Origin: Eledone cirrhosa
Lineage: Eukaryota
Assembly (NCBI GenBank): GCA_964016885.1
Contig: OZ024740.1
Location: forward strand, 329,840,001-329,904,000
DNA length: 64,000 nt
Direction of reading: 5' to 3'
A program made the position numbers and the translations under genes. This document shows, one piece after another, positions 1,390-60,050 of the stretch. Numbering within the stretch: the first letter of the stretch is position 1; each line of letters begins with the position of its first letter. A model generated the notes under the pieces. The model made no database searches, was not told where the DNA came from, and saw nothing but the letters and a program-made list of their open reading frames with translations.

Positions 1390-1650
1390 ATATGTTGACA
1401 AATAATTATTCACATCAAAATTTGATTTACGAATCTTTCATCCTCTTAGGACTTATCAAAATCAAACATTTTATAGATAATTAACTCAACACGTTCATTT
1501 TTTTGAATGAACAGAAATCAAAGAAAATATTTGTTTACATTTTAAACACCTCCATTACTCAGCAACAAGGGATAATGGCTGATTTTGATAAGAGGATGAA
1601 ACATTTGTAAATGAAATTTTGATGTGAATAAGTACTTGGCAACATATTTT
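1390..1650. mobile_element. Palindromic PLE terminal-repeat (pLTR) mini-element, family H
   Basis: 1390-1464 is the reverse complement of 1580-1648; both arms carry an HHR motif; the right end runs into (TA)n; the left arm may extend further. Confidence 0.65.
1424..1463 (-). ncRNA. Type I hammerhead ribozyme motif, U3-A8 variant
   Basis: gatt-TTGATAA-GTCC taaga GGAT-GAAA-gattcg-TA-aatc; stem I gatt/aatc; the right-arm copy has GAAA-C attt G-TA but a deleted stem II. Confidence 0.6.
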
Positions 1651-1654
1651 AATG

Positions 1655-1883
1655 TGTATATATAAATATTTATATATATATATAATTATATATATATATA
1701 AATATGTATATATATAATTATATATATATATATATATATATATATATATATATATATATATATATATATATATATATATATATATATATATATATATATA
1801 TATATATATAAATATGTATATATATATATATAATTATATATATATATATATATATATATATATATATATATATATATATATAT
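1655..1883. repeat. (TA)n microsatellite, representative of dozens of TA/CA/CT tracts in the window
   Basis: Direct reading of the sequence. Confidence 0.98.
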
Positions 1884-3985
1884 GTAGGAGGTGAGTTTTA
1901 TTGTAGCACAATAAAGCAATGCAAATATCGGATAATAGCACTCTACAGTTTGTGGGACTGGAGTATAAATAATATAAGATCAAAAGATGGTTAAAAGAGT
2001 TCCAAGTATTTTATTATGCGCATTTCAAAAACAAATATCATTATGAGATGATATCTGCGTTTTCATCAGATAAAATAGGGATATATGATATGAAGGTTAA
2101 AAAATACTTGTGAATAGTGAAGTTTTAAATCAACATATGAAAAATAATTTAAGATTGATGAGTGATATTGGGAAAAAGAGGGGAGTTGGAAAGGATAAGG
2201 AAGAGGAGTAGATGAGAGTAAAGAATGGTGGGGGAGGACTATAAGAAGGACGGGTGAGAGATGGGTGATAGAGAGAGAGAGATAGCCTTTACAACTGTGT
2301 AAAATATATATTGTCTCACAGAGAGAAGTTAAAAAGCCGTTGGAAGATGATAGATAATTTAAAAGAATTTAAAATTAGTTGATGAAGAGAAAAAGGGGTT
2401 AAGAATAATATTAAATTAAGGTTTGTATATTGAAGGGTTTAATAATTTGTGCGAGCAAAAGAAATTGTTAATATGTATTATTAAAATAAAAATATTAATG
2501 TTATTAAGGATACAATGTGAACAGAAATAGTAGAGTGGATGAGTTATGAATTTAGAGGAATTAGTTAGTGTTTAATTTGTTTCAATGCAATGTAATATGT
2601 GTGCGTAATATACGTACGTAAATAGTTTGTTTAAAAATGAGCGCAGAAAGCAAAGAAGATAAGAATGTTTAAGGAAGAAAAACATATCTAACATAAAAAA
2701 AAAGAGAAATATATATGTTTACGAAATATTTTCTAATGGTAATAATATAATATATTAAAAGAAATTAGTTAGAGTTTAAGTTTGTTTTTATGTATTGTAA
2801 TATGTAATATGTAAAAGTCAAACGAGCATGAAAGGAAGAGATAAGGAATTTAAGGAAGAAAAATATAACGTCAAGAAATGTTTATGTTTACGAAGGACTA
2901 TTAATGTATTAAAAAGATAATAATAATGTTTATGGCCAATGATATGAAGAAAGATGGAAGAATGGATAATGTTGTGGTGAGTAATAATAAGAATTGAGAA
3001 GTAGTTAGGAAGAAAAAGTACAGATTAGAGGTTAGAAATTAAAAAGAAAAAAGAAAAGAGGAAGAAAGGAAAGTGATAAAAAGGAATGATATAGAATGAG
3101 TAACTTGTATATAATATATAATAAATAATATTGAAATAAGGTAGAAAGATCGGTATATTTAAAAAAATATATATAAGCCTTTGAGAAACAGGATATTAAA
3201 CTAGTAAGGTATTAGATATTGGTTGTATACTTTATGGAATGTTCTGTGGAATTTATGCAAGCAGAGAGAAAATAAATCAGTGCGTCTATTTATTATAGAA
3301 TTTAAATTAGATATAATGTTAAATTTCTCAGATAGGCAAGATTACATGTTCTGGATAGGGAGGCATTCAAGTAGGGAGAGGCAGAACAAACTTTCCTCTA
3401 AGAGATGTTATAGTTAATATTTTTGTCTTTCAAGGACCATATGAGTTCTGAGAGTGCCGTGTTAGTACTTTTAAGTTGGTATCTAAAAGACGAATTGTGA
3501 TTATAAAATCTCGCTTTGAAGGAGGTGGAAGTGGAACCTAAATAGGTAAAGGAATTGATATCAGTTATAACCTTACATTCATAGACTAAGTTGTTTTCAA
3601 GACAATGGTTATTGAGAAGACATCTAGTTCTAACAGGGCAATTACAATTGCGATTAGAGAAATTAACAGAGTTATTAACAAGTGACCTAATGTTATTTAT
3701 AGGAGGAATTGGGTGGAGATGTTATTTACGATAGGAATAATAGTTTCCTAATTTAGATTGGCATTATGAACATTCAACGAAGTTACGTTTGACGTCGTAT
3801 TTGAGTTTGCAGAATCTAGCCTAGAGTTAACAATGACGTCGGGAGTACTACAGCTATTATTATGACACTCAGTGTTGGTAGGATGTGATTTAATATTTAA
3901 TATTTTATTGTTGTGTTTAGAGATAATATTAGAGATGTTGGAGGAGGTGGAATAGGAAAATGTTTTGTATGTTTGTTAAAGATTT
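1884..3985 (-). mobile_element. Naiad-type PLE 3' remnant, family C (GIY-YIG endonuclease plus pLTR)
   Basis: Minus-strand translation of ~3400-3655 reads RNCNCPVRTRCLLNNHCLENNLVYECKV...TYLGSTSTSFKARFYNH...ALSELIWSLK; the pLTR with its HHR ends at (TA)n. Confidence 0.85.
2009..2075 (-). ncRNA. Minimal type I hammerhead ribozyme
   Basis: ttttat-CTGATGA-aaac gcagatatcat..atgatatttgt tttt-GAAA-T GCGC A-TA-ataaaa; 6-bp stem I and palindromic loop III. Confidence 0.8.
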
Positions 3986-58852: not shown

Positions 58853-59180
58853 GAAGAAGCATAAATTAATGGTTCGAGCGTTGGGTTTGGAATTGAAAAT
58901 GTTGAGTTCTATACTCTACCGAATGATGCATTTTGTCCTTGAGCAAAACCCTTTATTTCACGTTGCTCCTGGTTACTCAGCTATAGAAATGAGTTACGGC
59001 GTCACTGACACGAAATTCTATCGGCCATTGCCTTTCCCTTTGATAACATCGGCGTGGAAAGGGAAGACTGGTGTGTGTGTGACTTGTGGTCTTTCACACA
59101 CCATATTTCCTCGGAGGGAAATTTCTAGGTACAACTCCCCTGTTCATCCTTGAGAAAAGGGTGTCTTTGGCCTTTACCAT
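58853..59180 (+). mobile_element. tRNA/CORE-like SINE
   Basis: tgtccttgagcaaaaccctttatttcacgttgctcc..cagctatagaaatgag; colinear with 660-1000. Confidence 0.75.
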
Positions 59181-59860
59181 ATATATATAATTACGTTGGC
59201 CAGTATGCTTTCAAAATTTTAGTTGATGAGCGTTTACCAAGATGGAGTTGCTCTGTCAAAAGAATAGAGGACACAGCTGAAGGGATCAAATTGGATTACA
59301 TTGCTTTATGATGATCCTAACGTTCTCCATTGGTGAACGATATGAGGGAAGATGCATATGCTGAAACATCTGGGAGATTCATCAGCATGGAGACTTCTAA
59401 CGATTTGCTGCCAGCAGAGTCTAGATGACAACAACTCAATAACTAATGTTTCAATATAGATTAAATTCAGACGACTAGCGAAAACCGAAGCATCGAACCA
59501 ATACATGCCAGACGTCGCTACGTTAATACAGTCGTATAACAGTTTTCGGTGAATTTTAATGATAATATTAGTGTAACCGAGGCACAATCATTCTGGTACA
59601 CTATCTAATATCATCACTTCTTTGTGACCGAAACCAAGCAATGGGGATGCAGTGCAATATGGCCCAAACCTCATTTTTATCTCTTTCCTTACTTTTCTTA
59701 AATTCACCTGGTAATTACTTGGGAATTGTCTTCAAACCGCTGGCATTCCGGATTTGATTCTAACGGTTATAATATGTAACACCTATATTATGAATCGTTT
59801 GTACTCTTAGCAATATATATATATATATATATATATATATATATATATATATATATATAT

Positions 59861-60050
59861 ACGTTATTCCGGGTTGCATCGGAGGTGACCACAGTAAGTA
59901 AGATACTCAATACATAGCAGAGTATACAAGTTTTAATATAGATGAGAATCTACAGGACTAGAACTATTTCATTCTTTAGAAATCATCAGGAATCCCTGAT
60001 GATTTCTAAAGAATGAAACAGTTCTAGTCCTGTAGAATCTCATCTATATA
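59861..60050. mobile_element. Palindromic family E mini-element
   Basis: 59936-59990 is inverted relative to 59995-60049, folding just 5' of CTGATGA; the left arm extends ~75 nt to (TA)n. Confidence 0.85.

Follow-up and report, generated by a model that had tools for sequence, protein, structure and literature searches.

The window analysed here is a 64,000-nucleotide stretch of the Eledone cirrhosa genome (GenBank assembly GCA_964016885.1, 3.0 Gb; contig OZ024740.1, positions 329,840,001 to 329,904,000 of the forward strand). It has a G+C content of 35%, is rich in (TA)n and other microsatellites, and contains numerous inverted pairs detected by self-comparison as well as several broken open reading frames (ORFs) in which reverse transcriptase (RT) and GIY-YIG motifs were recognised by pattern. 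Its insertions of Penelope-like elements (PLEs) and PLE-like repeats characteristically consist of two arms of the same family joined head-to-head, with both element 3' ends pointing outward, one arm reaching a long 3' end (L) and the other stopping at a short 3' end (S). The genome was searched with pieces of nine families (A, B, C, D, F, G, H, I and J) taken from the loci named in an earlier note on this sequence, with 30 loci per search; family references were built from the fetched loci and then mapped onto the window. The tally of pairs covers the window, the loci from the searches and 1.0 Mb of unselected tiles; as search-anchored loci are skewed to window-like copies, the main figures are repeated for pairs outside the anchors and for the tiles.

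The earlier note had described about a dozen head-to-head insertions with outward 3' ends, and ten of the twelve (at 4477, 9560, 17401, 23110, 25822, 27404, 38356, 45021, 54511 and 59861) prove to join one L and one S end. The family A insertion comprises a 5'-truncated left arm on the minus strand (17401-19811) that has its L end at (TA)n and encodes the RT C-terminus and part of the GIY-YIG domain (frame 18271-19716), followed by a right arm on the plus strand (19811-22975) that begins with a 46-nt remnant of the pseudo-long terminal repeat (pLTR), continues as a full-length broken Hydra-like ORF, and meets (TA)n with an S end that falls about 130 nt short of the L position. Family D forms pairs at 23111-24668 (L arm 23111-24090, minus strand; S arm 24093-24668, plus strand, with a 188-bp insert at 24259-24446) and at 54512-55561, where a short 5'-truncated L arm on the left faces a much longer S arm on the right; a long plus-strand copy of the same family with a broken Hydra-like ORF (48985-51445) has its L end at (TA)n and is preceded by a short inverted piece (48858-48984). 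The family C pair at 9560-9839 (L arm 9560-9667, minus strand; S arm 9665-9839, plus strand) has an arm overlap of only 28 nt. Family B, a tandem unit of 440 bp with a hammerhead motif, forms pairs at 4473-4810 (S arm left, L arm right, TA on both sides) and at 25817-26050, the latter with a different junction. The L arm lies on the left and the S arm on the right in the family I pair at 27404-27882 (tail of about 145 nt) and the family F pair at 59861-60049, and the order is reversed in the pairs of family H, another tandem hammerhead-motif unit (38353-38706), and family G (45021-45199). Two of the twelve depart from the description. By reference mapping, the family J pair at 1390-1654 is head-to-head with both arms ending short (minus arm 1390-1566, plus arm 1574-1654), and TA adjoins its right arm only; at 38722-38861 a plus-strand piece of family F is joined to a minus-strand piece of family G with the 3' ends inward, a tail-to-tail contact of two families.

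Families A and D have the RT pattern MG..S..DD and the GIY-YIG pattern VY..YIG in one ORF, broken in these copies, with GIY-YIG C-terminal to RT. This is the combination by which endonuclease-bearing (EN+) PLEs are recognised, and both families are classed as such elements on this basis; four homologues were found at E values of 1e-43 or better. A pLTR organisation, namely a partial tandem with an inverted 5'-truncated copy and a tail, is present at 17401-22975 and in fetched loci. DKT precedes the RT core in family A, CxCX5C is found in D and, within A, only in its right copy, and CxLC and CxH occur in A, D and a fragment at 4071-4390. By motif description (C-terminal endonuclease, DKT, CxCX5C linker, CxxC and CxH) the coding elements would belong to the Hydra clade, which they also resemble in (TA)n insertion and a length of about 3 kb (PMC8557442); they differ in that RWK was found only as a variant in family A and no canonical hammerhead core was found in A or D. 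The suggested association with Naiads, which have an N-terminal GIY-YIG domain and DKA, is abandoned, since the endonuclease lies C-terminal to RT and DKT precedes the RT core. The broken ORFs had no relevant match in Pfam, where the only signal was a sub-threshold RVT_1 match on an unrelated element.

A hammerhead core pattern is present in the consensus sequences of B, C, F, H and I and absent from those of A, D, G and J, and an Rfam scan of the families returned no hammerhead match, merely microsatellite-driven microRNA noise. Hammerhead-like folds with variant cores were noted by eye in D, G and J (51280-51345, 39690-39790 and 1420-1470, respectively). In family G, a putative promoter and a sharp 5' limit of the arms (a 5' wall) fall within the long stem II region, and a short transcript would lack half of the ribozyme. 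Family C is linked to a similar RT/GIY-YIG ORF in three loci, and families G and I in one locus each; F and J yielded no coding partner. In families B and H the unit, about 440 bp long and arranged in tandem, has a hammerhead-like core; no ORF was found in it, and a search for same-strand ORFs upstream of the units gave no match. Two independent kinds of feature set the direction of the arms: ORFs in families A, C and D, with a single locus each for G and I, and hammerhead-core motifs recognised by pattern in B, C, F, H and I.

Each family has two fixed 3' ends, about 30 to 190 nt apart, and 739 of 775 microsatellite-abutting arm ends in the nine families lie at one or the other. The distance between L and S is about 30 nt in B, 70-85 nt in F, G, C, H and D, 130-145 nt in A and I, and 175-190 nt in J. 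The one-arm shortfall of 30-150 nt noted earlier is therefore real but not variable: it ends at a single site per family. Also borne out is the claim that the ends usually abut (TA)n, as in the Hydra clade: both outer ends lie beside a TA, CA or TG microsatellite, mostly TA, in 212 of 244 L+S pairs, compared with 11.5% of random positions. Arms without a partner occur at microsatellites as well, 69 with long and 65 with short ends; within the window, solo arms of families C, F, G and D were noted at 1883-2480, 35072-35191, 39657-39798 and 62492-64000, with L or S ends adjoining (TA)n. In four family H loci (L123, L133, L138 and L150) the S end meets (CA)n rather than (TA)n, at a place where the element's own sequence resembles a CA repeat, a hint that homology of a few bases between RNA and target tunes the short start site.

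The pairing of ends follows a near-obligate rule. Of 323 same-family head-to-head pairs, 258 have two classifiable ends, and these comprise 244 L+S, nine LL and five SS combinations, where independent choice of ends would predict about 50% L+S. The L+S share is 38/40 in the unselected tiles and 116/121 outside the search anchors, and five of the nine LL calls, that at 17401 among them (its true right end is S), reflect plus arms that extend into the following tandem unit. Adjacent same-family pairs in the tiles are head-to-head in 51 cases and tail-to-tail in two; 93 of the 166 arms in the tiles are paired.

The 5' truncation of each arm is largely independent of that of its partner. Among the 244 L+S pairs, both arms have the same 5' extent in 134; the S arm extends beyond the L arm in 74, and the reverse holds in 36. 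In 23 L+S pairs, drawn from eight of the nine families, the arms do not overlap at all; 20 of these have a microsatellite at both ends, and one is a duplicated locus. Where arms overlap they are 89-98% identical (92% over 2.3 kb at 17401), which indicates aged sequence rather than read-through palindromes of assembly. The arms of a pair share subfamily variants: of 775 subfamily-diagnostic comparisons, 721 are concordant where about 483 would be expected, the agreement persists with loops longer than 100 nt (174/189), and 84 of 119 pairs with at least three diagnostic sites each have no discordant site, compared with 21% of cross-locus pairings. A single cross-family adjacency, in which TA separates the arms, stands against the 323 same-family pairs. 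These data fit an origin of both arms from one RNA or from RNAs of one source locus, and probably both primings took place on one source RNA.

Most junctions between arms are unique. Distinct junction keys number 246 of 280 (32 in 39 pairs of family F, 72 in 95 of family G, and nearly all in the others), and microhomology of at least 2 nt is present at 59% of the 111 junctions that lack extra bases, compared with 18% under the null expectation. Identical junctions in all copies, a sign of amplification as miniature inverted-repeat transposable elements (MITEs), are therefore not seen, although some junctions do recur in the two short families F and G. The junction at 59861 is found in at least 39 other loci, the query having held that junction; a junction-free query yielded varied junctions near the same family F wall, and the recurring junction occurs with the L end on either side (L199, L202 and L210 against most others). 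The palindromes are accordingly not regarded as MITEs, given their asymmetric ends, their mostly distinct junctions and both polarities at the recurring one. Arms stop within 10 nt of a 5' wall in 50/72 cases in F and 98/165 in G; walls are weak in D (22/96) and C (12/50), and none is evident in A (3/21). The wall in F and G sits about 30 nt after a TATA-like motif. Clustering of 5' ends at the ribozyme cut site was considered and rejected, the family F ends being clustered about 40 nt upstream of that site.

Raw Illumina reads from restriction site-associated DNA of three samples with the same species label were aligned to a copy of family G only. In all three, read depth changes about 20-fold at the 5' wall of this copy, and (TA)n follows both family G ends in 900-3300 reads per end and run. 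Many reads contain strand-switch joints, some of them into the tail, and several joints are common to all three samples; many joints share one read start, so each may represent one locus, and library chimeras may account for part of them.

The explanation that we consider likely is two-ended target-primed reverse transcription, in which both cut strands of the target prime, one at L and the other at S. The element enzyme would cut both target strands, and each cut end would prime its own cDNA from one of these two fixed sites on the RNA. A dimeric RT-endonuclease complex may be loaded with one RNA, or with RNAs from one source locus. Each cDNA would stop independently; displacement of the upstream cDNA by the downstream RT would yield overlapping arms, and survival of only one cDNA a solo arm. 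The two cDNA 3' ends may then anneal through 2-4 nt and each be extended on the other, and such mutual fill-in would also provide second-strand synthesis. Judged from the DNA alone, the F and G wall is probably a transcript start at which cDNA runs off, and this would account for both the miniature foldbacks and the recurring junctions of these families. This reading fits the biochemistry of PAc, a PLE protein (Poseidon), by analogy: according to PMC11167929, the protein, modelled as a dimer, cuts both strands of its target in vitro and extends them, uses uncleaved ribozyme RNA as template and AT-rich DNA as target, starts reverse transcription at two internal sites that match genomic tail ends, and cuts its own pLTR at AT-rich sites. 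PAc differs from the window elements in belonging to another clade and in having its start sites inside the ORF. Inverted insertions are not a topic of that text, where "inverted" occurs once, for a blocking group, and "palindrom" not at all.

Several observations weigh against two-ended priming or limit how far it extends. PAc has no strand preference for its start site and needs no homology between RNA and target (PMC11167929), which does not directly support the strict pairing. Of the 323 pairs, 65 are unclassed, with an end at the locus edge or elsewhere, and the microhomology count leaves aside the 105 of 216 junctions in which bases are added or mismatched. L-arm stops are not enriched at the S site (within 20 nt, 23/126 paired and 25/91 solo arms), and so lack the signature of collision expected on a single RNA. 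In F and G together, truncation of the two arms is mildly correlated (both arms in eight pairs, one in 20, neither in 46; p=0.02), which allows for some later central deletion, and conversion between arms could partly explain their shared variants.

Among the alternatives, the one that survives best, though we regard it as unlikely, is that a hairpin or double-stranded intermediate forms first and is trimmed by the endonuclease at the L and S sites on integration, a reading taken from PMC8557442. Such trimming accounts for the strict L+S asymmetry and for the shared variants; the L and S ends both lie in AT-rich sequence that resembles the target, and PAc cuts its own pLTR in such sequence. 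The 23 pairs with no common arm sequence would, however, require a further deletion from a hairpin, and the tail ends correspond in vitro to RT start sites. Fold-back self-priming, in which the cDNA, or an antisense RNA as proposed in PMC3846280, folds onto itself at a short inverted repeat and serves as its own template, is quite improbable. It agrees with junction microhomology, short junction palindromes and variants common to both arms, and mirror duplications around (TA)n in the window and in one tile indicate that fold-back can happen secondarily. Yet fold-back of cDNA requires the extra 5' sequence to be on the L arm, and it is the S arm that has it in 74 of the 244 pairs; together with the non-overlapping pairs this already contradicts cDNA fold-back by itself.

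We give very little credence to the view that a small number of palindromes, each of single origin, were amplified whole in the manner of MITEs, which perhaps holds for part of F and G: the repeated 59861 junction and the reduced number of keys in these families speak for it, and the predominance of distinct keys, the occurrence of the recurring family F junction in both polarities and the varied junctions returned by the junction-free query speak against it. Least credible of all are two unrelated insertions in the same TA tract or artefacts of assembly, since, although TA tracts gather many nested insertions and 38790 is a chance join of two families, there is no TA between the arms, same-family pairs and head-to-head orientation predominate (323 to 1 and 51 to 2), the arms are 89-98% identical, and strand-switch joints occur in raw reads of other samples. 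Taken together, the often longer S arm, the non-overlapping pairs, the shared variants and the mostly unique microhomology junctions argue against both simple fold-back and MITE-like amplification, and two-ended priming with joining by microhomology, as the earlier note had proposed, is upheld by all genomic tests able to separate it from fold-back or unit amplification. The self-complementarity of (TA)n, which that proposal had included, need not be a requirement, as the same layout occurs at non-microsatellite targets with target-site duplications (PMC3846280).

The architecture itself has been published. PMC3846280 describes EN+ PLEs with an inverted 5'-truncated copy at the 5' end, mostly head-to-head, with a tail of 30-40 bp on one arm and junction palindromes, and attributes this arrangement to self-priming from an antisense template; PMC8557442 reports the same layout, suggests endonuclease-mediated resolution for the tail, and calls the mechanism open. 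Layout, one-arm tail, junction palindromes or overlaps and microsatellite targets are thus common to the published elements and the window families, and head-to-head structure, one-arm tail and (TA)n bias are not new. The tails here, in contrast, measure about 70-190 nt in eight of nine families, and the L+S pairing, arm overlap and variant sharing are quantified here, where those texts invoke self-priming or endonuclease resolution. Longer fixed tails, the near-obligate L+S rule and non-overlapping pairs form a variant and a quantitative argument that were not found in the searchable literature; likewise, no earlier proposal of two-ended priming for PLEs was found in searchable full texts, a scope that leaves aside older subscription papers and supplements.

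The non-overlapping pairs have the geometry of L1 twin priming. There, both target strands prime on one RNA and the inverted segment is joined by microhomology; such events are sporadic, do not duplicate sequence and use a second site that varies. The pairs described here differ in that the second site is fixed, more than half of the tile arms (93/166) are paired, and most arms overlap. With a type I hammerhead-like core in units of about 440 bp that are repeated in tandem, families B and H resemble non-LTR (long terminal repeat) retrozymes, for which rolling-circle copying has been proposed (bioRxiv 10.64898/2026.07.22.740005). Unlike what that proposal describes, B and H insert as L+S head-to-head pairs just as the coding PLE families do, which points to target priming by a PLE protein.

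Other repeats occur in the window. The entire insert at 9560-9839 has a mirror copy across a central (TA)n (9896-10177, junction identical, about 98% identity), so that over 9547-10188 a whole L+S insert is doubled, with junction and private changes common to both halves; a similar mirror with near-identical halves is present in tile L295 (G000:C4, position 43779-43997 of a 100-kb stretch). These mirrored inserts, bounded by TA tracts, look like secondary fold-back duplications. A further family (K) of tandem units of about 321 bp lies on the plus strand at 35482-36350, ending at (TA)n and preceded by an inverted arm. A 557-bp inverted pair (48302-48859 and 52419-52975), 97.5% identical, flanks the long copy of family D together with about 1 kb of other sequence. 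The 188-bp repeat inserted in the right arm of the 23110 pair also forms tandem copies between (TAA)n tracts at 46139-46562. A different element with RT and GIY-YIG-like motifs and a weak RVT_1 match is located at 60028-61852, and a GIY-YIG-like fragment lies among retroelement remains at 53399-53833. ORF fragments at 31945-33292, which had no database match, are presumably LINE-like.

The origin of inverted PLE structures is named as an open question in PMC8557442, and the L+S rule and the non-overlapping pairs tie the in vitro result of two strands and two start sites to the genomic layout. They also imply that many small foldback repeats in such genomes are products of retrotransposons, which annotation tools could call MITEs or hairpin RNA genes. 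A more far-reaching idea, which we offer tentatively and hold to be somewhat short of an even chance, is that obligate twin priming is the normal route of transposition of these elements: one dimer would use one RNA with two fixed starts, the trailing RT would displace the leading cDNA, and the cDNAs would template each other with no separate primer for the second strand, while short promoter-derived transcripts would mass-produce MITE-like foldbacks of 150-250 bp, on the order of 50 per Mb for the nine families.

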